A stretch of 64,000 nucleotides of DNA from a virus. How positions within the stretch are numbered: the first letter of the stretch is position 1; each line of letters starts with the position of its first letter. The notes beneath the pieces were generated by a model that ran no database searches, was not told where the DNA came from, and worked only from the letters and a program-made list of their open reading frames with translations. Where the stretch lies: positions 1 through 64,000 of IMG/VR virus record IMGVR_UViG_3300046777_001715; one strand, 5' to 3'. Below are positions 14,460-45,996 of the stretch, in pieces. Position numbers and translations under genes: made by a program.

Positions 14460-15458
14460 ATGGATATTTCATATTACACAGTAAGAGCGGGATTAAATCC
14501 TGCTGTTGGATTTGGTTATGCTGGCCAAAATATAGTTAAATCATTGCAAAGATTAGGACATAATGTAACTTTTGCAAACCCTAAGTCTCAAGTACAAATA
14601 AACTTTACACAACCAGATAACTTTAAATTTCATAGAGGTCAGTATCAAATTGGATACACACCTTGGGAATCAACTTCAATGGATCCAATGTGGGTAACAA
14701 AGTTTAATCAATGTGATGAAGTTTGGGCAACATCTCAATGGACAGCAGATGTTTTTAAAGCAAATGGTGTTGAAAAAGATGTCAAGGTTTACAGACATGG
14801 TATTGAAAGTTTATGGAAGCCAAAGAAAAGAAGTTTAAAAGATGATGGAGTTTTTAAATTTCTTCATATTGGAGAACCTGCTCCAAGAAAAGATGGACAA
14901 TTAGCAGTTGAAACTTTTATTAAATTGTTTGGCAATAACCCAAAATATCACTTAACAATCAAAGCTCATCTATTTAATACTATAAGAATATATAATAATA
15001 ATAATATATTATCTTTACCAGATATATATAATAATATATCTATTATAACAGAGGAATATGATACTAGTCAACTGTTATTTTTATATCACTCTCACCACGC
15101 ACTTTTATATCCTTCTTGGGGAGAAGGTTTTGGTTTTATTCCTCTTCAAGGTTTAGCAACTGGTATGCCAGTAATTTCAACTTATGATTGGGCGGATTAT
15201 AAAGAATTTCTTGGACCTCTAAAGCTAAAGTCAACATTGACAGATGACAAGCTTCCTAAATCTGTTGGACATGAATATGTTGGAAAAATGTTTAAGCCAG
15301 ACAGAGAACACCTTGAGCAACTTATGCTTGATGTTGTAATGAATTATAAAGCTTATTCAGGATATTATTTTGCTCAATCAGAAAAAGTCCATCAAAAATA
15401 CAACTGGGATCAGTTGACTAAGAATGCTTTTGAAGATTTATCTAAAAAATTTTCCTAG
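14460..15458 (+). CDS. glycosyltransferase family 4 (GT-B)
   Basis: PWEST, RKDG, EGFGFIPLQGLATGMPVI motifs. Confidence 0.9.
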   Translation: MDISYYTVRAGLNPAVGFGYAGQNIVKSLQRLGHNVTFANPKSQVQINFTQPDNFKFHRGQYQIGYTPWESTSMDPMWVTKFNQCDEVWATSQWTADVFKANGVEKDVKVYRHGIESLWKPKKRSLKDDGVFKFLHIGEPAPRKDGQLAVETFIKLFGNNPKYHLTIKAHLFNTIRIYNNNNILSLPDIYNNISIITEEYDTSQLLFLYHSHHALLYPSWGEGFGFIPLQGLATGMPVISTYDWADYKEFLGPLKLKSTLTDDKLPKSVGHEYVGKMFKPDREHLEQLMLDVVMNYKAYSGYYFAQSEKVHQKYNWDQLTKNAFEDLSKKFS

Positions 15459-15549
15459 CCCTTGCCCTCTAAAAAAAATTTAGGTATACTTGGACTTACC
15501 CAAAAAAATTATTAGCTGTTTGGAAACGGCGGAAGAGAGTATTCTATAA

Positions 15550-17481
15550 ATGTCAAGAACTATTGAAAACCCATATGAGAACTTTATTGCATTGTCAAGA
15601 TATGCAAGATGGTTGCAAGAAGATAACCGTCGTGAGACATGGGGTGAAACAGTAGATAGATACTTTGACTTCATGCTTTCCCACTTAAAAACAATGGACT
15701 ATGTTCCAGACAACAAAACAGTAGAAGAGTTAAAGCAAGCTGTGTATGATAGAAGTGTTATGCCTTCTATGCGTTCAGTAATGACTGCAGGTCCTGCTCT
15801 TGATAGAGACCATGTTGCAGGATATAACTGTTCATTTGTTCCAGTAGACAATCCAAGATCATTTGATGAAACAATGTACATCTTGATGTGTGGAACAGGT
15901 GTTGGATTCTCTGTTGAATACAAGTATGTAAATAAACTTCCTGCCGTCCCAGAAACTTTTGAAAAGTCTACAACTATCATTACTGTAGAAGATTCTAAGC
16001 AAGGTTGGGCAAAAGCATACCGTGAACTTCTTGCACTGCTTTGGTCAGGACAGGTTCCAGCGGTAGACGTAAGTAAGCTTCGTCCTGCAGGTGCACGTCT
16101 TAAGACAATGGGTGGTCGTTCATCTGGTCCACAACCTCTAATTAACCTTTTTGATTTTACAATTGCAAAGTTTAAGTCAGCAGCTGGCCGTCAGCTAAAG
16201 CCAATTGAGGCTCACGATATTATGTGCAAGATTGGTGAGATTGTAGTTGTTGGTGGAGTTCGTAGATCAGCAATGATTTCACTTTCAAACATTAATGATA
16301 TTGAAATGGCTCAAGCAAAAGCAGGAAACTGGTGGGAGAATAATTCACAACGTGCACTTTCAAATAATTCAGTTGCATATTCTCGCAAGCCAGAGATGGA
16401 ACAATTTATAGCAGAATGGAAATCTCTTTATGATTCAAAGTCGGGTGAACGTGGCATTTATAATGTGGCAGCGGCGCAAAAGCAGGCAGCTAAGTATGGT
16501 CGTAGAGACCCTGAAATCCACTATGGAACAAATCCTTGCTCAGAAATTATTCTCCGTCCTTATCAGTTTTGTAATCTTTCAGAAGTCGTACTACGTGAAA
16601 AGGATACACCTACAACTGTCGCAGAGAAGGTACGCCTTGCAACAATTCTTGGGACTTGGCAGTCAACGCTAACAGACTTTAAGTATTTGCGTAAGATTTG
16701 GAAGGACAATACAGAAGAGGAAAGACTTCTTGGGGTTTCACTTACTGGACAGTTTGGAAACAAGTTTTTTTCTGGCAAAGAAAACCTAAATAAGCTTGAA
16801 GAAACTCTTGCACACCTTCGTGAGTATGCAAGAACAATTAACGCAGAAGAGGCTGGGAAAATTGGGATTCCTGAGTCTGCAGCTATTACATGTGTAAAGC
16901 CTTCTGGAACAGTATCTCAATTGGTCGGGGTATCTTCAGGAATGCATGCATGGCATTCACCATATTACATTCGCACAGTTCGTGGCGATAAGAAAGATCC
17001 ACTTTCAACATTCCTAAAAGAAGTTGGAATCCCAGTGGAAGATGATTTTATGAAACCAAATGACACTTATGTATTTTCATTCCCAGTAAAAGCTCCACAA
17101 GGTGCAATTACAAGAAATGATCTTACAGCAATTGAGCATTTAAACACATGGCTTGTTTACCAACGTGCTTGGTGTGAGCACAAGCCTTCAATTACAGTTT
17201 CTGTTAAAGAAGATGAATGGATGGAAGTCGGTGCTTGGGTTTATAAGCACTTTGATGAAGTATCTGGTATTTCGTTCCTGCCTCATTCAGACCACTCCTA
17301 TAAGCAAGCGCCTTATCAGGAGGTAACTGAAGAAGAATACTTAGAACTTCTGGCAAAGATGCCTTCTTCAATCCGCTGGGAAGATTTGTCTTTTTATGAA
17401 ACAGAAGACGGAACATCTGGAACACAAACACTTGCCTGTACCTCTGACGGAAATTGCGAAATTGTAGATATTTCCGCTTAG
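15550..17481 (+). CDS. nrdJ: class II (adenosylcobalamin) ribonucleotide reductase, monomeric RTPR type
   Basis: GYNCSF, GGVRRSA, TNPCSE, VKPSGT, C-terminal Cys pair. Confidence 0.93.
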   Translation: MSRTIENPYENFIALSRYARWLQEDNRRETWGETVDRYFDFMLSHLKTMDYVPDNKTVEELKQAVYDRSVMPSMRSVMTAGPALDRDHVAGYNCSFVPVDNPRSFDETMYILMCGTGVGFSVEYKYVNKLPAVPETFEKSTTIITVEDSKQGWAKAYRELLALLWSGQVPAVDVSKLRPAGARLKTMGGRSSGPQPLINLFDFTIAKFKSAAGRQLKPIEAHDIMCKIGEIVVVGGVRRSAMISLSNINDIEMAQAKAGNWWENNSQRALSNNSVAYSRKPEMEQFIAEWKSLYDSKSGERGIYNVAAAQKQAAKYGRRDPEIHYGTNPCSEIILRPYQFCNLSEVVLREKDTPTTVAEKVRLATILGTWQSTLTDFKYLRKIWKDNTEEERLLGVSLTGQFGNKFFSGKENLNKLEETLAHLREYARTINAEEAGKIGIPESAAITCVKPSGTVSQLVGVSSGMHAWHSPYYIRTVRGDKKDPLSTFLKEVGIPVEDDFMKPNDTYVFSFPVKAPQGAITRNDLTAIEHLNTWLVYQRAWCEHKPSITVSVKEDEWMEVGAWVYKHFDEVSGISFLPHSDHSYKQAPYQEVTEEEYLELLAKMPSSIRWEDLSFYETEDGTSGTQTLACTSDGNCEIVDISA

Positions 17482-17809: not shown

Positions 17810-17839
17810 TGTCCCTATGCTAAAATTGGCATAGGGACA
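17810..17839 (+). terminator. hairpin terminator
   Basis: TGTCCCTATGC-loop-GCATAGGGACA. Confidence 0.7.
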
Positions 17840-20162: not shown

Positions 20163-20462
20163 ATGGCAAGACAATTTCTCGCAACGCTGTCATTGCCAAC
20201 TCTTCCAGATCATCCTAGTGATGGACATGCTGGATCTCTATACTTTAATACCGAAATGAATGCATTAATGATGCATACAGGAACAAGTTGGATGCCAGTA
20301 AACGGATCACAATATGTTCTTGAAGATCACATTCATACTTATGACGGATCAATTCACACAGTTATAGCAGGATCATTTAATCCAAATCTAACAATTTTTG
20401 ATGGTGGATTATCTAGTGCTCAATACAACGCAGACACAAATCTTGATGGAGGTAATGGATAA
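20163..20462 (+). CDS. virion structural protein
   Basis: Coupled; GSLYFN knob motif. Confidence 0.65.
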   Translation: MARQFLATLSLPTLPDHPSDGHAGSLYFNTEMNALMMHTGTSWMPVNGSQYVLEDHIHTYDGSIHTVIAGSFNPNLTIFDGGLSSAQYNADTNLDGGNG

Positions 20463-21949
20463 TGGCAATTAGAATTCAGATGAGAAGAGACACAGAGGCA
20501 AATTGGATTGCAAATAATCCTATTTTAAAGCCAGGAGAGATTGGTCTTGCATTAGATAAATTTAGATTTAAGGCTGGATACTCAGAAACTTCAAGATGGA
20601 ATGATTGTGTTTACCTAAATGTTTATCCAGGAGAATTAGTAGAAGCAGTACAAGATGCAATTGGAACATCTGTTAACCACTCAGACCATTCTCATATTAC
20701 CGTAACATATAATGATGCAACAAATAAGTTTGTATTTGGAACTGCTCCAGAAGTTGTTCTGTCTTCTGGTTTGACAGATACACTTGGTGACTATGTAGAA
20801 TTTTCTTATTTTCAAGGAATATTAGATGAGCCAAATGGAATACCTACCTTGGATTCAAATGGTTTAATAATGGATGCAGAAATTCCAGCAACAATAGCAA
20901 GAGTTGCTTCTCCAACATTTACTGGAACAGTTGGCGGAATTACAAAATCAATGGTTGGTTTAGGTAATGTTGACAATACATCAGACGCAGCCAAGCCAAT
21001 ATCAACAGCAACCCAGGCAGCCCTTGATTTAAAAGCCCCTTTAGCAAATCCTTCTTTTACTGGAACAACAAGTACATCAAATCTTACAGTTTCAGGCAAT
21101 CTTACAGTGACTGGATCAACAACAACACAATCAACACAAAATCTTTCTGTTGCTAACCCACTTATCTATGTGGGAGAAAATAATCAAGCAAATATTATTG
21201 ACGTAGGACTGGTCGGAAGCTTTAATAATGGAACATATCAACATACTGGTATTGCAAGAGACCATGAAGCAAACAAATGGAAGCTATTTAAAGGTGTTGC
21301 AGATGAACCATCGACAACAATTAATTGGACACAGGCTACCCTTGATGACCTTGCTCTTGGAGACTTAACAGCAGCAACAATATCTACAACAACATCAATT
21401 TCTTCTCCAACAATTACTTCATCTACACAATTAAATGCAAATAACCTTACAGTAACTGGGACCTTAAATATTCCAACAGAATCAATTGCAAGTTCAGATT
21501 TACATTGGGAGCATTATGCCGCAGAAAGCAATTTGCCACCTGCGGCAGATAAACACGGCATGTTTGCTCACGTTCATGGGACTGGTGCTGCTTATTATGC
21601 ACACGCAGGCTCATGGTATAAGCTTGCTAAAGTAACAGATATATCAGACAACAACTTAACTTCAATTGTCCAAGTTAATGCTTCATATACGCCATCATTA
21701 ATTGATGCTTTTAAACTAATTGAAATGTCAACTGGAACACTTACTCTTCCAAATGATTCTACTGTAGATTTTCCAGTAGGAACTTATATTGATATTCTTC
21801 AAACAACAACAAATCAAATTAATATTGCTGGAACAGGATTTACACCAGATGCCACACCAGGTTTGAAATTAAGAACTAGGTGGAGCAGTGCAACATGTTT
21901 AAAACGAGGCCCTAATTTGTGGGTAGTATTTGGAGACCTAGTAGCATAA
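20462..21949 (+). CDS. tail fibre protein (Mtd/hyaluronidase-like N-terminus)
   Basis: RIQMRRDT...W..NPIL..GEIG; GLGNVDNTSD repeat. Confidence 0.75.
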   Translation: MAIRIQMRRDTEANWIANNPILKPGEIGLALDKFRFKAGYSETSRWNDCVYLNVYPGELVEAVQDAIGTSVNHSDHSHITVTYNDATNKFVFGTAPEVVLSSGLTDTLGDYVEFSYFQGILDEPNGIPTLDSNGLIMDAEIPATIARVASPTFTGTVGGITKSMVGLGNVDNTSDAAKPISTATQAALDLKAPLANPSFTGTTSTSNLTVSGNLTVTGSTTTQSTQNLSVANPLIYVGENNQANIIDVGLVGSFNNGTYQHTGIARDHEANKWKLFKGVADEPSTTINWTQATLDDLALGDLTAATISTTTSISSPTITSSTQLNANNLTVTGTLNIPTESIASSDLHWEHYAAESNLPPAADKHGMFAHVHGTGAAYYAHAGSWYKLAKVTDISDNNLTSIVQVNASYTPSLIDAFKLIEMSTGTLTLPNDSTVDFPVGTYIDILQTTTNQINIAGTGFTPDATPGLKLRTRWSSATCLKRGPNLWVVFGDLVA

Positions 21950-23019
21950 TGAAAAAAACATCCAGAAGGTCCAGACTGACGTCTAGGACGTCTATTCCAA
22001 ATTTAGTAGGATTAACAAGAGCTGAAGCAGAAACTGCTTTATCTAATGCTGGCCTTAGATTTAAATCTACTAGCATTGTAACAAATTATTCTGCAGATAA
22101 TAACAAAGTTGATTCTTTGCCAACGTATGTTTCAGGACAAATTATTCCTAGAGAAACAGAAATTGAATTTGTTTATAAGTCCTATCAGGGAATTGCAGTA
22201 CCAAATGTTTATGGTCTTTCTCAAGCAGCCGCCATTGCAGCAATTACAGCTGCTGGATTAACTGCTGGAACAGTTTCTGGAACAACTGGATCAGACAGTT
22301 CATTAGATCAAAAAATTACAGGGCAAAGCGTAGCTGCTGGAAATTTGGTAGATGCACTTAGCACCATAAATATAACTTTGTATACATATGTTGCGCCATA
22401 CTATAATCCTTATAGTAATCCTCCACCATATGATAATTATGGAAATTATGGAAATTATGGAAATTATGGAAATTATAATAATGCTCCACCACCCCCACCA
22501 CCAGATACAGGCGGCGGCATTGTCCTTCCACCCAGTGGTTGGAAAAGTTTGGGAGTTCACACTCTTGTTAGAACCCCAGATGGTTTAGTTGCCGCAGGAA
22601 GTTTAAATGTTGGAGACGTGTTAATTTCAGCAAATATTGAAGGTGTTCCTTACATGTCTAGCCCAGAAGCTAATCAAAGTATTTACAACTGGACTGATTC
22701 AGAACCAAATATTGAATATACAACAACAACAATTGTAATGGTTCATAAAAAAACAGGAGACACTGTTGTTGCTATTAATGGAGATATATTTTCTCAATAC
22801 CATTATATTTTAATCAAAAGAGACGGACTTGCAAGATTTATTGCAACAGCAGATATACTGGCAACAGATGAAATATATAGCTATGCTTCAAATTCTTTTG
22901 AGCCAATAACAATGTTGCAAATGGTTCCAGTTTCTCATGAAATTGTTTCTATTGATTGTGAACCATATGACATATTTTTCACTCAAGAGATGCTTGTTCA
23001 CGACTCAGTATCTATTTAA
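21949..23019 (+). CDS. PASTA-PASTA-(NYG/Pro repeat)-Hint domain protein
   Basis: IPNLVGL..AEA and VPNVYGL PASTA starts; Hint blocks SLGVHTLV...L.VGD.L and IDCEPYD.F....LVHD. Confidence 0.8.
   Translation: MKKTSRRSRLTSRTSIPNLVGLTRAEAETALSNAGLRFKSTSIVTNYSADNNKVDSLPTYVSGQIIPRETEIEFVYKSYQGIAVPNVYGLSQAAAIAAITAAGLTAGTVSGTTGSDSSLDQKITGQSVAAGNLVDALSTINITLYTYVAPYYNPYSNPPPYDNYGNYGNYGNYGNYNNAPPPPPPDTGGGIVLPPSGWKSLGVHTLVRTPDGLVAAGSLNVGDVLISANIEGVPYMSSPEANQSIYNWTDSEPNIEYTTTTIVMVHKKTGDTVVAINGDIFSQYHYILIKRDGLARFIATADILATDEIYSYASNSFEPITMLQMVPVSHEIVSIDCEPYDIFFTQEMLVHDSVSI
22435..22476 (+). repeat. 9-bp tandem repeat (AATTATGGA)x4.7 encoding NYG repeats
   Basis: Direct reading. Confidence 0.9.
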
Positions 23020-23020
23020 A

Positions 23021-23515
23021 ATGTTGTTAAAGTGGCCAGATGTACTAGAAGGGTATTGGATGCACCTTGCTAAATTGGACAACCATTCTTCTATAAGCTA
23101 CTGTGGCTCACTTTATAAAAACGATAAATATAAAAGTGGAACAATTATTGTTTCAGATTACATATTAAATGATTATCCAGATGTATATGCAACATTAGAT
23201 AAAAATAATGAGCTTAATAGGGTTTATACAAACCCATCGCTAAGACCATCCCACGTCTGGGAGTGGTGGGGCGTAATAACTAAATTTCTTTTAAAAAACA
23301 ATTTAAATTCAGATTTTCATGCACCAAAGGTAAGAAATAAAACGGCTCAAGATGGGTATGTAAGATATCAAAAGAATGTTAATGCCCCAGACAAATATAA
23401 GATAGAAGATATAACGTTGCTTCCAAATATTGAAGAGCCACCAAGAGACTTCATGTACCCTACAATATGGTACAATAAAAGAATAAAAGAGGTGTTAAAA
23501 GATGAGAATAGTTAA
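23021..23515 (+). CDS. hypothetical protein
   Basis: ORF; start reassigned to MLLKWP. Confidence 0.65.
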   Translation: MLLKWPDVLEGYWMHLAKLDNHSSISYCGSLYKNDKYKSGTIIVSDYILNDYPDVYATLDKNNELNRVYTNPSLRPSHVWEWWGVITKFLLKNNLNSDFHAPKVRNKTAQDGYVRYQKNVNAPDKYKIEDITLLPNIEEPPRDFMYPTIWYNKRIKEVLKDENS

Positions 23516-24035
23516 CTATCTAAACGGTATAGCTTACCTTGAAAACGTTGTTGAGGGGATAGACCTAAATTTAATTTCTTATGAAAAAAAAGAACTTGTC
23601 TTGGGTCAAAATGAAATATACCATGCTGAATTTAATATTGGCAAAAATGATGAAAATTTAGTTTTAAAAACATTATTTTATAAATCTTTTTTTAGCGCAT
23701 TAAGCCTTTATTTTAAAAGCAATTCAATTGTAGAAAAAGTTAATGTGTGGACAAGAAGCGAAGATCATTTTATACAATTACCAGGAACAGAAAACCCACA
23801 ATTAAAAGAAAGATCTGGTAACTTAGTAGAGGGCGGATACACCGTATTGTATTTTTTAGATACAGTAACTAGCGGAGGAAATGTCAATATTCCAAGTCAA
23901 AATTTTTCTATTAATTTGCAACAAAACTGCATGATAGTGTTTCCTTCGGGACAAGATTATAGATACAATATTAATAAAATTGGAGAAGGCACAGAGAGAA
24001 AGTTTATAGAGATAGTTTTTGATGAACGCATTTAA
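23502..24035 (+). CDS. 2OG-Fe(II) oxygenase-fold protein, iron ligands degenerate
   Basis: TVLYFL..GG...VFPS..Y....G.R pattern without HxD/H. Confidence 0.55.
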   Translation: MRIVNYLNGIAYLENVVEGIDLNLISYEKKELVLGQNEIYHAEFNIGKNDENLVLKTLFYKSFFSALSLYFKSNSIVEKVNVWTRSEDHFIQLPGTENPQLKERSGNLVEGGYTVLYFLDTVTSGGNVNIPSQNFSINLQQNCMIVFPSGQDYRYNINKIGEGTERKFIEIVFDERI

Positions 24036-24567
24036 AATTAAAAACATTTTTGAGGAATCATATTTTAACGAAATAAAAAATTATTTTGAAAGCCATTCTT
24101 TTTTAAATAATGCCGAATATGATTTTTACAACAGCAAAAGGATCGATTCTTTTGACGATCCAGTTTTAAAATCTATTTTAGAAAAATTACATGAACCAGC
24201 AAAAAAATGGTTTAACAATGAAAATATTGTTCCAACATATGCAATATTTTCTGAGTATTCTGGAAAACAAGCCCATTTAAATCCCCACCGTGATTCTGGT
24301 CCTTGCACCTACACGTTAGACATCGGGCTATACCACAAAACCCCTTGGCCACTTATAATTGAAGGCAAAGAATATTCATTTTTAGAAAATGAAGCAATAG
24401 GATTTTATGCCAACGATCAAGATCACTGGAAGCCAGAATTTCCAGATCCAGAAAACAATAAAGTTGGAATATTGCTTGTTCACTACGTTAATTCAGATCA
24501 CATATGGCTTACATTGCAGCCAGATGTTCAAAAATTAATAAGACAAAGAATTAAAACTGTTTCATGA
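24022..24567 (+). CDS. 2OG-Fe(II) oxygenase
   Basis: HRD...CTYT...HW motif. Confidence 0.75.
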   Translation: MNAFKIKNIFEESYFNEIKNYFESHSFLNNAEYDFYNSKRIDSFDDPVLKSILEKLHEPAKKWFNNENIVPTYAIFSEYSGKQAHLNPHRDSGPCTYTLDIGLYHKTPWPLIIEGKEYSFLENEAIGFYANDQDHWKPEFPDPENNKVGILLVHYVNSDHIWLTLQPDVQKLIRQRIKTVS

Positions 24568-25109
24568 TAAAAGCAAACTTTAATGTTCACGGAGTTAAAG
24601 AAGCAATATTGTCTGTCAAAAACAGTACAGAAAAGGTTTATTTTTTTAACTCTGGAGATAAGGCCGATCTTGTAGGAGAGCCTCTTTCCTATTCTTCAAC
24701 CCAGTTTAATGTTTTTGGCATATACAATTCAAATATATTAAGCCTTTATAAAAATATTTTAGCCATTTTAAAGGAAGAATGCTTAAAGAATGAAATAAAT
24801 TTTAGCGGCTCCGAATACTATATCTCTTCAGATTATTTTCAAGAATTGGTAAACACCAGGGCCACATATGATTTTGGGGGAATTGGAATACCGTGCTTTA
24901 ATGGTATAATTTCTTTACAAGAAAAAGAAATTGTTGTATACTTAAATAAAGAAGAAAAAAAGCTTAATTGCGGGGACACGCTATTTTTTGAAGCGGGACA
25001 AGAAATAAGCTATAAAGAAGAAGAAGTAGAGTGCATATACTTTAATATTGCCCCAAGATTTATGATTGAAAGTCAGTACCCTTTTAAATGGATACCTATA
25101 GGAGCATAA
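24564..25109 (+). CDS. cupin/DSBH-like hypothetical protein
   Basis: GDTLFFEAG...YFNIAP pattern. Confidence 0.55.
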   Translation: MIKANFNVHGVKEAILSVKNSTEKVYFFNSGDKADLVGEPLSYSSTQFNVFGIYNSNILSLYKNILAILKEECLKNEINFSGSEYYISSDYFQELVNTRATYDFGGIGIPCFNGIISLQEKEIVVYLNKEEKKLNCGDTLFFEAGQEISYKEEEVECIYFNIAPRFMIESQYPFKWIPIGA

Positions 25110-25745
25110 ATGGCGCTAGAAGACGTTGTAGTTATATATAACTTCATTGATGAAGAAGAAAGATCAATGCTTTTGGAATACGAAAAAAATTTAACCAAAA
25201 ACGATCTTTGGGAAAAAAGAAATTATTCTGATCCACAAAATCAGTGGACAAATAGACACCTTTCAATCATTCATTTGCTTATACCAGAGCTTGGATTTGG
25301 AACAGAATATGACATTATGATAGCTAAAAAGCTTTGGGAGATAGAAGGAAGAATTAGAAAGCAAATTAAAGAATCTTGGAATTTAGATAAAGACATCTGG
25401 CCAGATTGCTTTAATTTAATTCGTTGGCCACATGGTCAAGCTCAACCACCACATTCTGATTATGAAAATTTCTCAAGAGAACCACATGTTTGGAATTGGA
25501 GAGACATAGGGTGTGTGCTTTATTTAAACGACGAGTTTGAAGAAGGCGAAATACGATTCCCGCAGTTTGACCGTGAAATAAAAATTAAAGCAGGTATGCT
25601 AGCATTTTTCCCAGGAGATATTCATCATGCTCATGGAGTTAAAGAAGTAAAAAATGGTACTAGATATACTTTAAATACATTTTACACTTTTTCAGAAGAC
25701 CATAAGTTTGAAGTAGATTTTAATAGAAATTACGGTGCTTGGTAA
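25110..25745 (+). CDS. prolyl 4-hydroxylase-like 2OG-Fe(II) oxygenase
   Basis: HSD, LYLND.FE.GE..F, HGV..V..G.RY. Confidence 0.88.
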   Translation: MALEDVVVIYNFIDEEERSMLLEYEKNLTKNDLWEKRNYSDPQNQWTNRHLSIIHLLIPELGFGTEYDIMIAKKLWEIEGRIRKQIKESWNLDKDIWPDCFNLIRWPHGQAQPPHSDYENFSREPHVWNWRDIGCVLYLNDEFEEGEIRFPQFDREIKIKAGMLAFFPGDIHHAHGVKEVKNGTRYTLNTFYTFSEDHKFEVDFNRNYGAW

Positions 25746-26166: not shown

Positions 26167-28095
26167 ATGGAAACCTTATACCCCAATCAATTAGATGTCT
26201 TTATTCAGCCACTTGCAACCGATTCGGTACAAGCAGTTTCCCACTCTGCACAACACAGAAGGTTAAATGATGCAGTTTATCAAATTGAGTTAAAGCTTGG
26301 CATAAACAACTCAACAGATCCAGCCTCTATTGAAAACAGGCTAACAACTCTTAAAAATTTTGTAGATTTAACTAGCGCAAATTTAGGAAACCTAGAAGAT
26401 TCACTTGGGGATTATGTCCCGCTATCTTTGTATGAAGACGAAAAAGCTGCACCAGGAGGATTGGCAACCCTAGGCCTTGACGGAAAACTTCAAGCCTCTC
26501 AAATTCCAGCTTCAATTGCAGCAGACGCACAGTCTCGTGCAGATCAAGCACTGTCTGCAGCTGGAACCTACACCGATGAAAAAATTGCAGATCTTTTAGA
26601 TTCAGCTCCAGCAGCTTTAGATACTTTAAATGAGCTAGCAGCAGCACTAGGTGACGATGCTAATTTTGCATCAACAATGACGACATCTTTGGCTGGAAAA
26701 TCAAATGTTGGACACACTCACCTTTCTTCAAATATAACTGATTTTATTGAGGCGGCACAAGATGCTTCAGCTTTACTATTTAATCACAGCAACCATAATA
26801 GCGTAACTGCTACATATGACGACGAGAACAATAAAATTATTTTAACTGTAAGTCCACAACTTACTCAAGAACAGGTTCAAGATTACATTGTTCCGCTTTT
26901 CCAAAGCGCTAACAACAAAAATATGAATATAATGTACGACGATGAGAATAATCAGCTTATCGTTGAAGCAATTACAGAGCCCTCAAAGGCTGTTATGTCT
27001 GACACCGCTCCAACAAACCCAGCACACGGAGCATTTTGGTTAGACACAGATGAATTTAGAAGCGGCGTTAGAGCCCTTAAAATTTATAACAAATATCCAG
27101 CTGCATATAAAGGGGACTACAATAATGGCGCATACTACGCACTAAATGATGTAGTTAGCATTCCAGCAGGAAGCCCATATGGAATAGTTGGATCATATTT
27201 TATAAGATCTGGTAATCCAGGAAATCCAGGATATCCTCCAGAGCCAGGCGGAGCAACAAATGCTTCATGGACACTCTACTCATTTGCTGGAAGTTGGGAA
27301 TACGCATCAACTGCACTAGGATTAGCAACAGAAAATGTTTGGACAGCAAAAAATACATTTAACCAAGGCGTAATTATTGGAATGGATGTTGCTCCAACAA
27401 ATCCAGTAGAAGGACAAATCTACTATAACCTTGCAGCAGAAAAGCTAAGAGTGTTTGATGGTTTAGTTTGGAAAGATGTTTCAGGAGGAGCAGGCGGAGG
27501 TGGCGGACTTCCAAGTATTTCTACGGATGGATCTGCTACACCAGCAACACTTTTCTTTGGAATGATTGCTCCGCCTTCTGCAGCCGCATTAGAAGGAGAT
27601 ATTTGGTTTGATGTTGATGACCTTGGAGCACCTTATGGACAATTCTACACTGGCCTAACCGCACCAGACCCAGACCAATATGAATTTTGGGTGGATCCAA
27701 GTTTAGCTCCTGGAGAATTAATTTACTCTGCAGATGAACCAACAACTCCACAATATACTGGAGAACTTTGGATTGATACAGATGATTTAGATGGACAGCT
27801 TTTAGAGGTTGGGTCAAACACTCCAAATCCAAATAACGTCCAACTTTGGGTAGATATTAACGATCTTGATACGCCATCGTATTATACAAATTTGGTCTTT
27901 ACAAGCTATCCAAATTATTCAGCTTTTCCAGTAGCCTCATCAAAACCAGGCATGCTAGCAGTAGATTCTTCAACTGGATTAGTTTATATTTCAATTAATG
28001 GGGTGTGGGCATCACAACCAACTCAAGCAGAACAGAATAAAACTAAAATTCAATCACAAGGCACTCAGGCCTTAGTTTGGATGGGCTTTTTATAA
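26167..28095 (+). CDS. tail fibre/appendage protein with repeated W.D knob motifs
   Basis: APAALDTLNELAAALGDDANF; repeated P....G.LWxD; leaderless start. Confidence 0.75.
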   Translation: METLYPNQLDVFIQPLATDSVQAVSHSAQHRRLNDAVYQIELKLGINNSTDPASIENRLTTLKNFVDLTSANLGNLEDSLGDYVPLSLYEDEKAAPGGLATLGLDGKLQASQIPASIAADAQSRADQALSAAGTYTDEKIADLLDSAPAALDTLNELAAALGDDANFASTMTTSLAGKSNVGHTHLSSNITDFIEAAQDASALLFNHSNHNSVTATYDDENNKIILTVSPQLTQEQVQDYIVPLFQSANNKNMNIMYDDENNQLIVEAITEPSKAVMSDTAPTNPAHGAFWLDTDEFRSGVRALKIYNKYPAAYKGDYNNGAYYALNDVVSIPAGSPYGIVGSYFIRSGNPGNPGYPPEPGGATNASWTLYSFAGSWEYASTALGLATENVWTAKNTFNQGVIIGMDVAPTNPVEGQIYYNLAAEKLRVFDGLVWKDVSGGAGGGGGLPSISTDGSATPATLFFGMIAPPSAAALEGDIWFDVDDLGAPYGQFYTGLTAPDPDQYEFWVDPSLAPGELIYSADEPTTPQYTGELWIDTDDLDGQLLEVGSNTPNPNNVQLWVDINDLDTPSYYTNLVFTSYPNYSAFPVASSKPGMLAVDSSTGLVYISINGVWASQPTQAEQNKTKIQSQGTQALVWMGFL

Positions 28096-28128: not shown

Positions 28129-28758
28129 ATGTCACTTAAAAGATGGGACGGCTCTTCTTGGGTTGTCGTAGCAGGTTCTAGACCAGGTCCACAAGGTCCG
28201 CAAGGTGCCCAGGGTCCAGCAGGTACACCTGCAACAATTTCTATCGGAACAGTAAATACTACCGCAGAAGGAACAAATGCAACAGTAACAAATACTGGAA
28301 CAGCTTCTGCAGCAATTTTAGCTTTTAATATTCCAAGAGGTGCGGTAGGAGCACAAGGTAATCAGGGTCCACAAGGTATTGCTGGACAAAGAGGAAGCAA
28401 GATCTACACAGGACTTAATGCTCCAACATCTTCTAATCCTGCACCTTCAAGTCTTTTAGGAAATGATCAATATTTAGCAACATCAACTGGAGCCTGGTAC
28501 ATTTATGATTCATCAGGTTCTGGGGCTTGGTCTCTACAGGGAAACATACAGGGACCACAAGGTTTGAAGGGTGATACAGGTGCCACTGGCCCAACTGGTC
28601 CTTCAGGTAACGTAGTGGCAAATGAACTATATGCAAAGACAGACGCTTTGCAAGTTGATGCACTACTTAATCTTGGAATATACTATCCAAAGTATACTTC
28701 AACATTAACACAATCACAGTTAAACAGTAGATTCGCTGCAAGCAGTTTCTTATTTTAG
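28129..28758 (+). CDS. collagen-like (Gly-X-Y) fibre protein
   Basis: GPQGPQGAQGPAG, GPQGLKGDTGATGPTGPSG. Confidence 0.85.
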   Translation: MSLKRWDGSSWVVVAGSRPGPQGPQGAQGPAGTPATISIGTVNTTAEGTNATVTNTGTASAAILAFNIPRGAVGAQGNQGPQGIAGQRGSKIYTGLNAPTSSNPAPSSLLGNDQYLATSTGAWYIYDSSGSGAWSLQGNIQGPQGLKGDTGATGPTGPSGNVVANELYAKTDALQVDALLNLGIYYPKYTSTLTQSQLNSRFAASSFLF

Positions 28759-28769
28759 GAGAATAAAAC

Positions 28770-31700
28770 ATGGCAAGAAGACAAATTGAAGAGACATACT
28801 ATACATTTAATCCAGTAACAAATACGATTACTGTACCTAGAGTTATTAAAGCAGAACGCCTTATGCTCATCACCAATGTCACAAAAAACACTGTCATTTA
28901 TAATTTCTCCGACCCAAATCTGGGCTATGTTTCTGTAACACCAGATAACTCTATTTCAAACAGACCTGGAACAACAATTGTCCTTGAATACAACTGCTCT
29001 TCTATGCTATCAACAGACAAGCTTGCAATTGTCTATGATGAAGTTGCAGAGACAGTTACATTTGAGCCAGCACTTTTAGATGCTGTTCAAAAGCTTCGTG
29101 TAGCACCACCGCAGTCTTTGATGGATACAGACTTTGAGTACGGTGTACAGCCATCAAAATGGGAAGCCCTTGTAACATGCAGCAATTACCCAACATTTTT
29201 CTCAAGAAATACAGGCGGAAACTCCTACGACATTATTAATATAGCAGGAAACGGAGCTTCACCAAGATCAACCGTTACAGTAACAACTGCTTCAAACCAT
29301 GGACTTGCAAATGGAGACGTAGTTTCAGTTCAAGAAACATCATCAGGTGCAACAGCAGATGGAACTTATCCAGTTACAATTGTTGACTCTACTACATTTA
29401 CATATCAGGCTAAGGGTGTTGTTCCAAACCAATCAATCAAAGATGGAAATATGACTGGTGTTTATGGTGGAGGAATCTACGACAATGCTCACATTGTTGG
29501 AGGAAACATTGGTGGATTTGGATCATGGTCTGCAATTTCAGATCAAGCATCATATTCAACAATTACTGTTACAACTCCAAGACCACATGGATTGCTTCCA
29601 GGAACACCAATTCTTGTTAATGATCTTACAAACCCAATTGGTGGAATTCAGTTTATCACAAACGTTTCTACACCAAATCAGTTTAAGTTCCAAATGGCTA
29701 CTCAGGCGGCAGTTACAAATCCAATTAATACAGTAAACGTTGGTTTATTTACAAGACCAGAAGGATATGTTGACCACCGACCATTTGACGGCGGAGTTAT
29801 TTTAACTACAGCAAACAACGTTTGCGGTGTACAGACAGTACGCCAAACACGCCGTTACTTTAGATATCAATCAGGTAAGTCAATCCAGTTCTCAACAGGC
29901 GCAATGTTGACACCAAATTATGACATAGATACAATTTATTGCGACAGCAATGCTGTTGGAATTACAAGAGTTGTTGTAACAACTCGCCAAGACCACGGGT
30001 TGCAGCCAGGCGCAACAATCAGACTTGAAAATGCAACAGTTACTGGGACATATAACCCTTGGAATGGAGATTTCCAGGTTACTGAAGTTTTAGGAACAAA
30101 CTCATTTAAGTATGAAATGTTGCTTAACCAAATTCTTCCTTCAACAGATCAGTTCCCAGGAGGAACAGATGTTAAGATTACTGTTGTTAAATGGAAAGGT
30201 GCAGCAACTCGCTGTGGACTATTTGATGACCAAAACGGATTCTATTTTGAATATGATGGAAAAGAGTTCCACTGTGTTCGTAGATTTACAAAGAAAGAGC
30301 TCTTTGGAAGAGTTAATGTTACACAGTATTCCAGCTATGTACAAGGAACTAACACAAGATTTAGAAAGCAGCTTACTGTAGGAGATCAAATTACAATTAG
30401 AGGAGCCCATTACAAGGTAAATCAAATTAATAACGATACAGAAATGTATATCTCTCCAGCTTATAAGGCTCAATCAGTTTCATCTGCTAGATACTTAAAG
30501 ATGGAAACTATTAAGGTTCCACAGTCACAATGGAATATTGACAAAATGGACGGAACAGGTCCATCAGGATATATTTTGAACCCAGCTCGTATGCAGATGG
30601 TCTACATTGACTACACATGGTACGGAGCAGGATTTATTAGATTTGGATTTAGAGGCTCAGACGGAAATATTTTCTATTGCCACAAGATGCCTAATAATAA
30701 TGCAAATACAGAGGCGTATATGCGTTCTGGAAACCTTCCAGCACGTTATGAGGCAGTAAATGAGCCAACAAAGTTTGCACGTCTTGTTGCAGGAGGAACA
30801 GCGATCAGTGGAGCAGACCTTCTGCCAACAGAAATTGCAATGTATGTTGACAATATTGATTTCTGGCCATCATCTGGACACTTGTTTATTAGAGATGCTC
30901 AAAATACCGAAATTGTTTCGTACTCATCTCTTGGGGCGTACAATCCAGTAGCTCGTGGATATCTTGTAAACATTGCAAGACGTCAACCTATGTCAATTAA
31001 TTATTCTGGAGCAATGGTTCAACTTACTGGAACTCAAGCAAATGTTGTATTCTCACCAGACGCAACAGTTCCAGGTGGAGCAGGAACAGCACAAGTTTCT
31101 GTAGCCCCAATTTCACAAGAATGTGCTCCAGTTATTTCACACTGGGGATCATCTGTGATTATGGACGGAAGATTTGATGATGATAAGGCTTATATCTTTA
31201 CCGCTGGTATGCAGAGATTTATGCAAATTACTGGTTCTGGTACATTTACAGCTAAAATTGCAGGAAGATCCGCAACAGGTGGGTTGGTAACATTAACAAC
31301 AGCTACAGCGCATAATATTCAGCCAGGATATGATGTTTCTATTTCTGGTGTAAATACAACAGCTTCAATTATTTCAGCAAACATTACAAACTTCAATACA
31401 GCAACTATTACAACTTCAGGTGCTCACAATTTATTGGCTGGACAGACAGTTACACTTACAAACGTAATTAGTGCTTCCAACACAATATTTAATGGAGTTA
31501 GAACAATTCTTACTGTACCAACAACAAACACATTTACATTCTCTAGACCAAATCCACAAAATGTTAGCTTTACTGGATTGGCTGGAACAGTAACAGAGTC
31601 TCAAACATTTAACGGAACATTCTCCGTTACAAATGTTACAACAAACACACTCATGTACAACATTTCAAACAATACTAGTTTCCCACAAGCAGTTGTTGCT

Positions 31701-32276
31701 TCTGGAACAGCCACACAATCATTTGGTTCTTCTTCAACACCACGTCCACTGGTATCAATTAGAATTGCGCCGTCTGTAGACAATGGTCTTGGAAGAAACT
31801 ATGGAATTCGTGAAATTGTTAACCATATGCAGCTTAACCTTTCATCAATTGGTATCTTGTCTTCAGGACAGTTCCTTATCCAGGGCTTCTTGAATCCAGC
31901 ATCAATTATTGGACCTTCAATTCCTAATGATTGGGAAACAACAAGAATTCCAGGAGGTTCTCTTGCACAGGTAATTTACCATGATGGAGGTGGAGTTCCA
32001 GGAAATACAATTACAAACCCTACAAACTCAGTTACAGGTGGTGACCAGGTGTTTGCGTTCTATACCGAAAACTCTGGTGGAGATAACCTTTCTGTAACAT
32101 CGTTTGATCTTTCAAAGGTACGAGATCTTGGAACATCTATTCTTTCTGGAAATGGTAGCACAACCGCTCCAGGATTCCCAAATGGTCCAGATATTCTTAC
32201 AATCGTAGCAACAAACCTTGGTGCTACAACAGGTAACATTTCTTGCCGCTTGTCATGGACAGAGGCTCAGGCTTAA
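28770..32276 (+). CDS. large virion structural protein with repeated T..HGL..G beta domains
   Basis: 1168 aa; DTDFEYG.Q..KWE; HWGSSVIMDG; 5 repeats. Confidence 0.75.
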   Translation: MARRQIEETYYTFNPVTNTITVPRVIKAERLMLITNVTKNTVIYNFSDPNLGYVSVTPDNSISNRPGTTIVLEYNCSSMLSTDKLAIVYDEVAETVTFEPALLDAVQKLRVAPPQSLMDTDFEYGVQPSKWEALVTCSNYPTFFSRNTGGNSYDIINIAGNGASPRSTVTVTTASNHGLANGDVVSVQETSSGATADGTYPVTIVDSTTFTYQAKGVVPNQSIKDGNMTGVYGGGIYDNAHIVGGNIGGFGSWSAISDQASYSTITVTTPRPHGLLPGTPILVNDLTNPIGGIQFITNVSTPNQFKFQMATQAAVTNPINTVNVGLFTRPEGYVDHRPFDGGVILTTANNVCGVQTVRQTRRYFRYQSGKSIQFSTGAMLTPNYDIDTIYCDSNAVGITRVVVTTRQDHGLQPGATIRLENATVTGTYNPWNGDFQVTEVLGTNSFKYEMLLNQILPSTDQFPGGTDVKITVVKWKGAATRCGLFDDQNGFYFEYDGKEFHCVRRFTKKELFGRVNVTQYSSYVQGTNTRFRKQLTVGDQITIRGAHYKVNQINNDTEMYISPAYKAQSVSSARYLKMETIKVPQSQWNIDKMDGTGPSGYILNPARMQMVYIDYTWYGAGFIRFGFRGSDGNIFYCHKMPNNNANTEAYMRSGNLPARYEAVNEPTKFARLVAGGTAISGADLLPTEIAMYVDNIDFWPSSGHLFIRDAQNTEIVSYSSLGAYNPVARGYLVNIARRQPMSINYSGAMVQLTGTQANVVFSPDATVPGGAGTAQVSVAPISQECAPVISHWGSSVIMDGRFDDDKAYIFTAGMQRFMQITGSGTFTAKIAGRSATGGLVTLTTATAHNIQPGYDVSISGVNTTASIISANITNFNTATITTSGAHNLLAGQTVTLTNVISASNTIFNGVRTILTVPTTNTFTFSRPNPQNVSFTGLAGTVTESQTFNGTFSVTNVTTNTLMYNISNNTSFPQAVVASGTATQSFGSSSTPRPLVSIRIAPSVDNGLGRNYGIREIVNHMQLNLSSIGILSSGQFLIQGFLNPASIIGPSIPNDWETTRIPGGSLAQVIYHDGGGVPGNTITNPTNSVTGGDQVFAFYTENSGGDNLSVTSFDLSKVRDLGTSILSGNGSTTAPGFPNGPDILTIVATNLGATTGNISCRLSWTEAQA

Positions 32277-43704: not shown

Positions 43705-45996
43705 ATGGCATACAGACAATATGGAAACGTAATAAATACACTAAATATAAAAGCTAAAAATATATTTAATTGGAACACTAATTATCCAGATACATACGGA
43801 TACACAAATTTAAACTCAGTAAATGCCCACACAATTATTAAAAGATCTGGAATTAAAGTTGCTACTGGTACAGGGCAACTTCTTGGATTCGTGCCTTCTT
43901 TAATTGGACTAAATTTTGACACAGCATCACTTATTCTTAGAAATGCTGGATTCACACCAGACCCAAACTATATATTTTCAAATAGTATAGGCTTTCAGCA
44001 ATATCTTGCTCAGGGTGGTTATGTTTCTGCACAGGCCCCCGCACCTTCATCATCTTCTGGAACACTTCTGGCTTTTGGTTCTAGCGTTAGAATGGACGTA
44101 ATCCTTTATACAACAAATCCAATTGATAACAGCACTGTTCCAAATGCACCGTTATGGTCAAACGCAACATCTGGAGATTCTTCTGTTACTTTAACATTTT
44201 TAACACCAGCAAACGGTGGCTCACCAATTACAAGATATGAATATTCTATAACAAACGGAGCAACTTGGATAAATGTAAATCTTCCAATAGATAACACGTT
44301 TACGGTTTCAAGTTTAAGTAATGGAGTTAATTACACTTTTTATATTAGAGCAGTTAATGCTAAAGGAAACTCTGCATCATCTTCTGGTGTAACTAAAGCT
44401 CCTAGCAGCGGAAGTGGTGGAGGTCAGCTAACTGTTCCAGGCGCACCAACATTTACAGTGTCATTTATTACCAACACATCATTTAGAATTGATTTAACTC
44501 CACCAACAAATAACGGCGGAGCAGAAATTATTAGATACCAGCATACATTAGATAATGGAGTTAGCTGGACAAATGATTTTACAAATACAGGACCAATTAC
44601 AGTTTCTTCATTAAGCCCAGGTTCAACTTTTCAGGTTGGATTAAGAGCTGTTAACTCTGTTGGAAGCGGAAATTCAAGTCCTATACAATCTGTATCAACA
44701 ACACAAGTAGTTCCAGATCTTACTGGTATATCTGTAAACTCAGCCAAATCAATTATTACAGCTTCTGGTTATGTATATGGAGATGGAACAATCTCTGCTT
44801 CAAATAACCAATTTTTTCTTGATTATCCTGGAGGGTATGTTACAGCACAATCTCCAACGGCAGGAGCAACCTTAGCTGGCGGCGGAACAGTAAGACTTGA
44901 CTTTACTCAATATTTGTCAGCACCATCTTTTGGAACGGTTCCAAACGTTATTGGCCTAACTCTTTCAGAGGCAGTTACAAGAATACAGCAGGCTGGATAT
45001 TCAAATATATCTTATGTTACAACTTCAGATCCAAACAGAGTCTATCAACAGATTTATGCACAAAACCCAGTTTCTGGAACAGCAGCACTTGTTAATACTC
45101 AAATTACAATTAGTTATTCAGATTATACTGGATCAATTGCAATTCCAACTAATACAGTTCTTCCAAGTATTACATATGACAATCTTTATATTGGCTCAAG
45201 ATTTGCTGCCGTTCCTGGATCTTGGACAGACAGCCCTACATCCTACGCATATCAGTGGTTTGACTCAAACGGAAACAATTTTATAAACGCCACAAGCGCA
45301 ACGTTTATTGCAGGTGCTTCAGCAATTTCTAGATCGGTAAGATTAAAGCTTGCAGCAACAAATGCAGTTGGAACAAGCTCATACGTTTCAGCATTAAATT
45401 CCTACGGACCAATTAAAGATTTATTTCAGCCAACATCAATTGAATATGGACTAACAAATCCAAGACAAAAAACACAGCTTAATATAAGATGGTCTGGAGG
45501 AGACGCTCCATTTTATTTTGTTGGTGTGTATAAACCAGGCACCTCTTCTTATGTAACAACTAGAATTGTTACAACAGAATCAGCTTCAATAACAGGACTT
45601 TTTGAAGGGACAAATTATTACATTCAAATTTTTGCCAACAATAACAATGAATATTCAACTGGTTCAAAAACAAGTCAAGTTTTGTCAACTGTGTATCCAG
45701 CCGCCTCAGCAACACCAGTTCTAAATACAGCCACAAAGTCTGGAAATGCAATTAATTTTACAGCAACAAAAGGTTCTAATACTGGAGCTCTTTATATGAT
45801 ATTGGAAACAACATCTGGGGGTTCCGTGTCTAATGCAGTTGCTCAATATTTTGGATATGATCAGTCCACAAACAGTGTTTCTGGTTCATACGATATAACA
45901 AATATTGAATCTGGAACATACAGGCTAACTGCTTATGGATGGAATGAAGACTACAATACTTCATTAGCTGGTTCTTCTGTACAACTTACGATATAA
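43705..45996 (+). CDS. PASTA and fibronectin type III domain virion protein
   Basis: VPSLIGL, VPDLTG, VPNVIGL PASTA units; NGGSPITRY...RAVN..G FN3 units. Confidence 0.85.
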   Translation: MAYRQYGNVINTLNIKAKNIFNWNTNYPDTYGYTNLNSVNAHTIIKRSGIKVATGTGQLLGFVPSLIGLNFDTASLILRNAGFTPDPNYIFSNSIGFQQYLAQGGYVSAQAPAPSSSSGTLLAFGSSVRMDVILYTTNPIDNSTVPNAPLWSNATSGDSSVTLTFLTPANGGSPITRYEYSITNGATWINVNLPIDNTFTVSSLSNGVNYTFYIRAVNAKGNSASSSGVTKAPSSGSGGGQLTVPGAPTFTVSFITNTSFRIDLTPPTNNGGAEIIRYQHTLDNGVSWTNDFTNTGPITVSSLSPGSTFQVGLRAVNSVGSGNSSPIQSVSTTQVVPDLTGISVNSAKSIITASGYVYGDGTISASNNQFFLDYPGGYVTAQSPTAGATLAGGGTVRLDFTQYLSAPSFGTVPNVIGLTLSEAVTRIQQAGYSNISYVTTSDPNRVYQQIYAQNPVSGTAALVNTQITISYSDYTGSIAIPTNTVLPSITYDNLYIGSRFAAVPGSWTDSPTSYAYQWFDSNGNNFINATSATFIAGASAISRSVRLKLAATNAVGTSSYVSALNSYGPIKDLFQPTSIEYGLTNPRQKTQLNIRWSGGDAPFYFVGVYKPGTSSYVTTRIVTTESASITGLFEGTNYYIQIFANNNNEYSTGSKTSQVLSTVYPAASATPVLNTATKSGNAINFTATKGSNTGALYMILETTSGGSVSNAVAQYFGYDQSTNSVSGSYDITNIESGTYRLTAYGWNEDYNTSLAGSSVQLTI

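Follow-up and report, generated by a model that had tools for sequence, protein, structure and literature searches.

Known carriers of Hint domains are inteins, Hedgehog proteins, and surface or toxin proteins of bacteria. In inteins and BIL domains, a set of conserved positions serves an N-to-S/O acyl shift and C-terminal cleavage, and for BIL2, encoded in the BUBL locus of Tetrahymena, conjugation of a ubiquitin-like domain via a thioester is reported. For the tailspikes and fibers of phages, an intramolecular C-terminal chaperone domain, Peptidase_S74, is described that would be auto-removed after it has assisted assembly (PMC7824862). The following analysis concerns a PASTA-repeat-Hint precursor gene (21949..23019, + strand, 356 aa) of an uncultured freshwater phage, IMG/VR virus record IMGVR_UViG_3300046777_001715. 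The window, i.e. the whole stretch of DNA that was analyzed, comprises the first 64 kb (64,000 nucleotides) of this 106,256-bp record, which is rated 99% complete. The Hint gene is followed by a cassette of five genes, denoted c1 to c5. Comparison with related loci shows a fixed unit, consisting of the repeat, the Lys|Ser junction with the Hint domain, and the genes c1 and c4, whereas the N-terminal cargo and the tailoring enzymes are interchangeable.

The C-terminal domain of the precursor is assigned to the Hint superfamily as a BIL-type domain on the basis of its modeled fold and its motifs, without a match to a curated sequence model. In the AlphaFold2 (AF2) model of the precursor (predicted local distance difference test (pLDDT) 78), residues 200-356 are folded confidently. 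In Foldseek, this part is matched best by 2lwy, a BIL domain from C. thermocellum (E 5e-8, TM 0.83, root-mean-square deviation 2.1), followed by Tetrahymena BIL2 (6y75, E 5e-8) and then by the gp41-1, DnaB, and DnaE inteins; many inteins match the model at E<1e-4 when it is compared with the PDB. In BFVD, the same fold is shared by uncultured-phage proteins that were automatically named 'PASTA_pknB' or 'Hint domain containing'. The domain and its tail (22543..23016, + strand) display the junction Lys199|Ser200, S282-x-x-H285, C337-E-P-Y-D341, and H351-D352-S353, followed by the tail VSI. An earlier reading of the DNA from its letters alone, below termed the sequence-only reading, had proposed a C-terminal Hint domain at 22546-23004 that starts with Ser and ends with HD-S. 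These coordinates are exact, since the Ser200 codon starts at 22546 and the Asp352 codon ends at 23004, and the fold matches 2lwy. The phage domain shares with this BIL domain the fold, the N-terminal nucleophile, the block B S/TxxH, and the block F/G pattern, as well as the location within a variable surface-type protein and the lack of a homing endonuclease. It differs by having Ser1 instead of Cys and a His-Asp instead of a His-Asn end, by its position at the very C-terminus, where only 3-6 residues follow it, and by being phage-encoded. In addition, it is preceded by Lys and a hypervariable repeat and followed by the genes for a GNAT protein and c4.

Conservation was analyzed in a sample of 72 metagenome homologues and 219 IMG/VR relatives, of which 80 loci were retrieved; the resulting Hint alignment contains 59 distinct domains. 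Residue 1 of the Hint domain (position 200) is Ser in 56 of these and Cys in one, Thr205 is conserved in 58, and the block B S/T-x-x-H (S282-Q-Y-H285 in the window) retains Ser/Thr282 in 57/59 and His285 in 57/59. The CEPYD block (337-341) is near-invariant. At the C-terminal end, position 351 is occupied by His (50/59), Tyr (6/59), or Phe (2/59), position 352 by Asp (57/59) or Asn (1/59), and Ser353 is conserved in 49/59. Lys199, the residue at -1 to the junction, is found in 54/59 sequences. One relative, P0070, shows the canonical Cys, TKEH, and HN-I-I-C in the same alignment columns. Retention of the catalytic residues at ~40% overall identity argues for Hint activity of the predicted domain, and to judge from these residues, self-cleavage is plausible.

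A Hint domain also occurs in gp105 (L082:3978-5420) of the Erwinia jumbo phage (Alexandravirus) pEa_SNUABM_35, which resembles the window protein in being a tail-module 'virion structural protein' with a C-terminal Hint domain (28% identity over 150 aa). It contains a long collagen G-X-Y region and, unlike the window Hint, shows the canonical Cys1 (SGC|IVYG), THEH, and VHN-T; PASTA domains are absent. Homologues of c1 and c4 were not found in any GenBank phage.

Linkage was scored in 49 distinct loci for which 2.5 kb or more of flanking sequence was available and in which downstream open reading frames (ORFs) were called, clustered, and scored by family hidden Markov models (HMMs). The c4 family is present in all 49 loci. 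c1 is encoded anywhere downstream in 47/49 and immediately after the Hint gene in 45/49, where it starts either with a 19-nt overlap with the Hint stop codon or 3 nt past it. Oxygenases of the c5 family (prolyl 4-hydroxylase (P4H) type) occur in 26/49 loci, DUF6065 proteins in 20/49, and true c3 in 16/49, and five loci carry no accessory enzyme downstream. When the family HMMs were crossed with the complete set of downstream ORFs, no cross-match fell below E 0.01. Linkage of Hint, c1, and c4 persists to ~40% Hint identity, with an N-terminal cargo that may consist of 1-3 PASTA domains, of fn3, or of 500-800 aa that match no family. These frequencies define a core of Hint, GNAT protein, and c4. 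Genomic linkage in other phages, whose lack the sequence-only reading had named among its refuting outcomes, is therefore present; its proposal that the oxygenases are the cassette partners of the Hint gene has to be revised, as c1 and c4 are the obligate partners and the P4H-type enzymes are found in only about half of the loci.

c1 (23021..23515, + strand, 164 aa) is a member of the GNAT acyltransferase superfamily and not an oxygenase, as indicated by VIA-align, by Pfam hits in relatives, and by a profile comparison with the PDB. With its AF2 model (pLDDT 85), the top 50 VIA-align matches are all GNAT-fold chains (Z 5.8-7.5, residues 1-132); Foldseek of the same model against the PDB gave no significant match. 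Window c1 itself has no Pfam match. Among its relatives, Acetyltransf_1 is matched by 17/33 (best 1.9e-6) and Acetyltransf_7 by 15/33 (6.9e-8). The c1 family is small, with only 53 clusters, all standalone, in 1.84 billion proteins, and distant relatives from this search were used to deepen the family profile. All 25 PDB matches of the latter are GNAT proteins, headed by NATA1-like/GNAT8, diamine acetyltransferase 2 (SSAT2), and thialysine N-epsilon-acetyltransferase, although these weak matches, with E values from 0.004 upward, are restricted to motif A. The alignment displays the GNAT motif A pattern V-x-P-x-x-R-x-x-G with an invariant R75. In all 50 distinct loci with c1, Lys occupies position -1 of the junction; the c1-less loci L076 and L077 have Met and Val, respectively. 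This co-occurrence, together with the nearness to acetyltransferases of Lys-like amines, suggests that c1 may act on or near Lys199.

The universal partner c4 (24564..25109, + strand, 181 aa) is characterized by the conserved residues YD-GG-P, E143, Q171, and W176. It has no Pfam, PHROG, or PDB match, and its comparison with the c5 family by hhalign is not significant. Weak leads are Cupin_2 (E 0.04 in 2/18 members) and Asp_Arg_Hydrox in the Atlas (0.91). Fused or longer forms of c4 were looked for and not found, and neither c4 nor a relative of c1 found a match by tblastn among 50,697 GenBank phage records.

The N-terminal part of the precursor comprises two PASTA domains (aa ~16-146; 21994..22386, + strand; PF03793, E 2.3e-14), which score 53.5 bits in two stretches (cut-off 23.2). 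In a six-frame search, they map to 21994-22092 and 22195-22383, and Foldseek matches this region to the PASTA structures of PknB and PrkC (5e12, 3m9g). They are followed by the low-complexity repeat YYNPYSNPPPYD(NYG)4NYNNAPPPPPPDTGGG...GW (aa 149-198; 22393..22542, + strand), which ends just 5' of the Lys199 codon and is disordered in the AF2 model (aa 152-198, pLDDT 31-42). Both the two PASTA domains and the repeat segment had been described by the sequence-only reading, the former being seen alike by Pfam and the six-frame search and the latter reading as it was quoted. Within the repeat, (NYG)n is encoded by a perfect 9-nt tandem repeat, AATTATGGA x4.7 (22435..22476, + strand; TRF, 100% matches), from which a recent expansion and a capacity for in-frame changes of length follow.

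This repeat is of a hypervariable type, since every member of the family harbors a different low-complexity repeat directly 5' of the junction. The types include (NYG)n with NPYSNPPPYD, (NPGF)n, (FFPP)n, (PPxDPP)n, polyproline, and (SPPPIIA)n, furthermore (FGA)n with up to 17 copies, which is Gly-X-Y-like, (GFxHYA)n, and Thr/Gly-rich stretches. Up to 17 unbroken FGA (Gly-Ala-Phe) triplets are found in L070, L071, L074, L078, and L079, with a weak Pfam Collagen match (E ~1e-3). The sequence-only reading had regarded the repeat as a RiPP-like substrate (RiPP: ribosomally synthesized and post-translationally modified peptide). There is no short leader/core precursor here, the repeat being a segment of a 356-aa multidomain protein, and the cassette yielded neither a RiPP recognition element nor a RiPP family; the resemblance is one of analogy only.

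Two of the cassette genes, c5 and c2, are of an oxygenase type, and a third, c3, is a lead. c5 (25110..25745, + strand, 211 aa) encodes an intact P4H-like 2-oxoglutarate (2OG)-Fe(II) oxygenase that matches PF13640 (2OG-FeII_Oxy_3) at 3.6e-11 with 44.3 bits against a cut-off of 27. Its iron triad, H115, D117, and H175, is invariant in the family alignment, and its profile matches P3H1, the B. anthracis P4H, and the PBCV-1 P4H at E 1e-12 to 1e-10. c2 (23502..24035, + strand) groups with c5 in a BLASTP clustering and belongs, in degenerate form, to the P4H-type 2OG oxygenase family. In the clade of the window, KERSGN and a Tyr replace the HxD and the distal His, both of which are kept in L056, L034, and L055; judged by these residues, c2 is a dead paralogue that has lost its metal ligands. 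c3 (24022..24567, + strand) is a small protein with an HRD...H pattern and matches to phrog_2954 (1.3e-8) and phrog_3531 (6.4e-4). The named Atlas clusters nearest to c3 all carry PF13640 (scores 0.90-0.92); hhalign against the c5 family and the PDB profile comparison were not significant. On phrog_3531, c3 aligns at positions 50-154 and c5 at 287-360, therefore other phages appear to carry a fusion in which a c3-like part precedes a P4H-like one. c3 is possibly an oxygenase-associated domain, which is to be taken as a lead only. The label 'ferrochelatase' of PHROGs 2954 and 3531 was rejected for c3, since the Atlas cluster of this name has 2OG-FeII_Oxy_3 in 98% of its members; the label appears to be a mis-annotation. 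Two intact and two degenerate oxygenases had been claimed for the cassette, one of them P4H-like. The P4H-like enzyme is confirmed by the profile and the intact triad of c5, and c2 is degenerate; c3 stays at the level of a lead, and c4 shows no demonstrable homology to oxygenases. Another 2OG-FeII_Oxy_3 gene is located at 94910-95230 of the same genome, beyond the window.

Relatives harbor further tailoring enzymes at the cassette site. In L046, a GlcNAc transferase of the Skp1-Hyp GlcNAc transferase family (L046:9571-10548; PF11397, E 2.5e-31) is part of the cassette, and the Hint protein of this relative carries a polyproline/Thr-Pro repeat. In L059, a 523-aa tryptophan halogenase (L059:3954-5525; PF04820, E 9e-94) lies between the homologues of c1 and c4, and the Hint protein displays CFWLCG near the junction. 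SDR and GT2 proteins also occupy the site. DUF6065 proteins (E 3.6e-28) are encoded by L020:8197-8892, L070:4993-5706, and 22 other ORFs, sometimes in two copies; a search of the DUF6065 profile against the PDB found nothing. By their predicted families, the enzymes of the relatives fit the proposal of the sequence-only reading that the repeat is hydroxylated and perhaps then glycosylated. The window cassette resembles known P4H systems (PBCV-1 vCPH, 5c5t; B. anthracis, 3itq and 5hv0) in the profile match of c5, its intact HxD...H, and the nearby Pro-rich repeat, and the relatives recall the Skp1 Hyp-GlcNAc pathway by the PF11397 GlcNAc transferase at the same site. In contrast to these systems, no glycosyltransferase is found in the window cassette, and two or three of its paralogues are dead or unassigned.

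Taken as a whole, the gene product may be a self-processing actinophage pro-adhesin whose Hint domain works with the GNAT protein and c4, with prolyl hydroxylation of the repeat as an optional extra; this reading is given an even chance. The two PASTA domains would bind peptidoglycan, and the fast-evolving Pro/Tyr/Asn repeat would form a flexible, polyproline-like stalk. The Hint domain is supposed to cut the chain at the Lys199|Ser200 junction through an N-to-O acyl shift that uses Ser200 and S282-x-x-H285, Asp352 standing in for the usual terminal Asn. c1 and c4 would be maturation partners of the conserved junction and Hint part, not of the variable N-terminal cargo. c5 with c2 and c3 would form an optional tailoring layer that most likely hydroxylates the repeat prolines before assembly. 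In its general layout, such a protein would resemble those with a Peptidase_S74 domain, as a low-complexity fiber-type protein is expected to shed its C-terminal domain. The analogy extends to function only, since fold and chemistry are unrelated (a Ser-Lys dyad versus the Hint acyl shift), and the window protein has no Peptidase_S74 match in Pfam.

Several observations weigh against the pro-adhesin reading. No Pfam Hint family matches the window protein at E<0.1. The terminal Asp in place of Asn and the penultimate Tyr or Phe of some relatives mean that the chemistry may differ from that of inteins, although a few natural inteins end in Asp. The location in the virion is drawn from gene position and a weak PHROG match (6e-5). 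Window c1 shows R-P-S-H-V-W where most relatives have R-x-x-G and may therefore bind acetyl-CoA poorly, and the association of Lys with c1 amounts to a single evolutionary contrast (one clade). Finally, P4H-type genes are absent from 23/49 loci, including the very Pro-rich L026, L029, L032, and L047.

The last point bears on the substrate of the oxygenases. P4H-type genes are missing from each of the eight loci whose repeat is almost free of proline, although these loci stem from few clades, and wherever such a gene is present, the last 70 residues contain 7 or more Pro. On the Hint tree, the P4H-type gene shows a minimum of 6 changes of state, which fits an accessory role. The co-variation of repeat type and enzyme set, which the sequence-only reading had put forward as a check, is not demonstrable, since on the Hint tree only three pairs were usable when Pro-rich repeats were tested against P4H-type genes by independent contrasts (p = 1). 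That an oxygenase acts on the repeat is accordingly a tentative proposal, favored slightly less than its opposite.

Alternatively, the oxygenases are cargo of a hypervariable island, with other fibers or host molecules as their substrates, which is rather unlikely. Enzyme genes within fiber and host-recognition clusters are known from large aquatic phages (PMC7029224), and a cyanophage cluster that combines a halogenase with 2OG oxygenases and a cupin was read as a secondary-metabolite or capsule-decoration system (PMC7824862), both of which speak for such cargo. The frequent state changes of the c5 family, its absence from nearly half of the loci, and the higher AT content of the cassette as compared with its flanks point in the same direction. 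A candidate for another fiber substrate lies close by: a 209-aa collagen-like fiber protein with three G-X-Y stretches in its translation (28129..28758, + strand) is encoded 2.4 kb downstream of the cassette, its gene is syntenic in 19 distinct loci, and the P4H-like enzyme might act on its product instead. However, c5-family genes adjoin the Hint gene in 12 distinct loci in which no collagen-like gene was seen within 7 kb, the near-proline-free loci all lack them, and relatives fill the same slot with other protein-tailoring enzymes.

A further alternative concerns the fate of the junction. The Hint domain may be a ligase, in which case the Lys199-Ser200 ester would be resolved by an amine or hydroxyl of a virion protein, of the cell wall, or of the Lys199 side chain. 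The PASTA-repeat part would become covalently attached or C-terminally modified, with c1 catalyzing or gating the transfer, e.g. by acetylating Lys199. In favor of this improbable scenario, the reportedly conjugating BIL2 domain of Tetrahymena (6y75) is among the best structural matches, and the near-invariant Lys at -1 is unusual for an extein residue and tracks the presence of c1, whose nearest solved relatives acetylate basic amines or Lys analogues (SSAT2, NATA1, thialysine N-epsilon-acetyltransferase). Moreover, the conserved part of the family is its C-terminus, which is otherwise the expendable end of a fiber. These arguments are offset by the weakness of the c1-PDB matches, which are confined to motif A, by the fact that the co-occurrence of Lys and c1 sets a single clade against the rest, and by the lack of the motif-A glycine in window c1. 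In an extended form, Hint, GNAT protein, and c4 would constitute a conjugation or peptide-display system. The Lys199 ester would allow the PASTA-repeat part, with the aid of the GNAT-fold protein, to be transferred to an amine of the virion or host wall or to be capped (Lys lactam, acetylation), and swappable hydroxylases, glycosyltransferases, and halogenases would make a chemically modified adhesive tip out of the hypervariable aromatic/proline repeat; this, too, is given little probability.

Equally improbable is a Hint domain that does not cut and serves as a trimerization/registration or virion-docking module for a polyproline or collagen-like stalk, its residues being kept for folding or for binding of c1 and c4. 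The replacement of Asn by Asp in 57/59 domains and of the penultimate His by Tyr or Phe in eight would agree with this, as would the missing Pfam Hint match and the nature of several repeat types (G-X-Y-like, (GAF)n and (GNY)n, or polyproline), since such stalks need a nucleation domain. A structural role leaves unexplained, however, that the acyl-shift residues Ser1, T205, and S/TxxH are kept in at least 95% at ~40% identity, and the sole relative with Cys also has the canonical HN. Two established classes of Hint proteins were rejected. The Hint domain is present in all family members, always terminal and without an endonuclease insert. A true class 1 intein is incompatible with the His-Asp-Ser end, the terminal 4-residue tail, and the absence of both an endonuclease and an insert-free allele, and a Hedgehog-type Hog domain with the mere Ser-Val-Ser-Ile after Asp352, which leaves no adduct-recognition region. 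Hedgehog proteins are alike in that a C-terminal Hint domain frees or derivatizes a variable N-terminal cargo via a junction ester or thioester; the phage protein differs by the missing sterol-recognition region (4 residues after Hint), the Ser nucleophile, and its prokaryotic-viral origin.

In the literature, no paper was found on a widespread phage Hint family that ends fiber-region adhesins behind a fast-evolving repeat and is tied to a GNAT gene and a second small gene. If the Hint domain cuts or ligates, it would represent a new maturation route for host-recognition proteins of phages and a natural Ser/His-Asp Hint chemistry for protein engineering. The module provides a concrete candidate substrate for many orphan P4H-like oxygenases of aquatic phages, and it may bear on how phages of abundant freshwater actinobacteria grip the Gram-positive wall.

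The host of the phage is probably an actinobacterium, as a whiB-family gene is present in the genome (99370-99543 of the record, beyond the window; PF02467, E 1.6e-13, above the cut-off), and whiB is a marker for assigning freshwater phages to Actinobacteria (PMC6802176). A second PASTA protein of 763 aa with three PASTA domains (43705-45996, + strand) has minor-tail PHROG matches, which makes wall binding by virion proteins plausible. A megablast search of the region against GenBank phages gave zero matches.

Fiber-like and virion genes form a long run on the + strand from ~17.9 kb onward. The Hint gene is preceded by a tail-fiber-like gene (20462..21949, + strand; Mtd_N and many tail-fiber PHROGs), to which it is translationally coupled, its ATG overlapping the stop codon of the fiber gene. 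The C-terminal part of this upstream gene is conserved 5' of the Hint gene in many loci. The Hint gene and the five cassette genes are separated by gaps of +1, -14, -17 (or -14), -4, and 0 nt, and the GC content is 0.31-0.33 at 23-26 kb in comparison with 0.36-0.41 in the flanks. The compact, AT-rich five-gene block of the sequence-only reading is thus recovered, with genes that overlap or abut. A scan for promoters and terminators revealed no signal above chance, including no terminator between the Hint gene and the fiber genes. Downstream of the cassette, another tail-fiber-like gene (26167..28095, + strand; tail-fiber PHROGs) precedes the collagen-like gene.

Upstream of the fiber operon, 14460-17481 (+ strand) encodes a glycosyltransferase (phrog_2170, E 1e-64) and a ribonucleotide reductase (phrog_367), and a strong hairpin (17810-17839) is located 3' of this pair and 5' of the operon. 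Next to the collagen-like gene, 28770-32276 (+ strand) encodes a virion protein of 1168 aa with ~35% identity to the 'virion structural protein' of S-PM2-type cyanomyoviruses, which also has matches in Puniceispirillum and Actinomycetia phage records.

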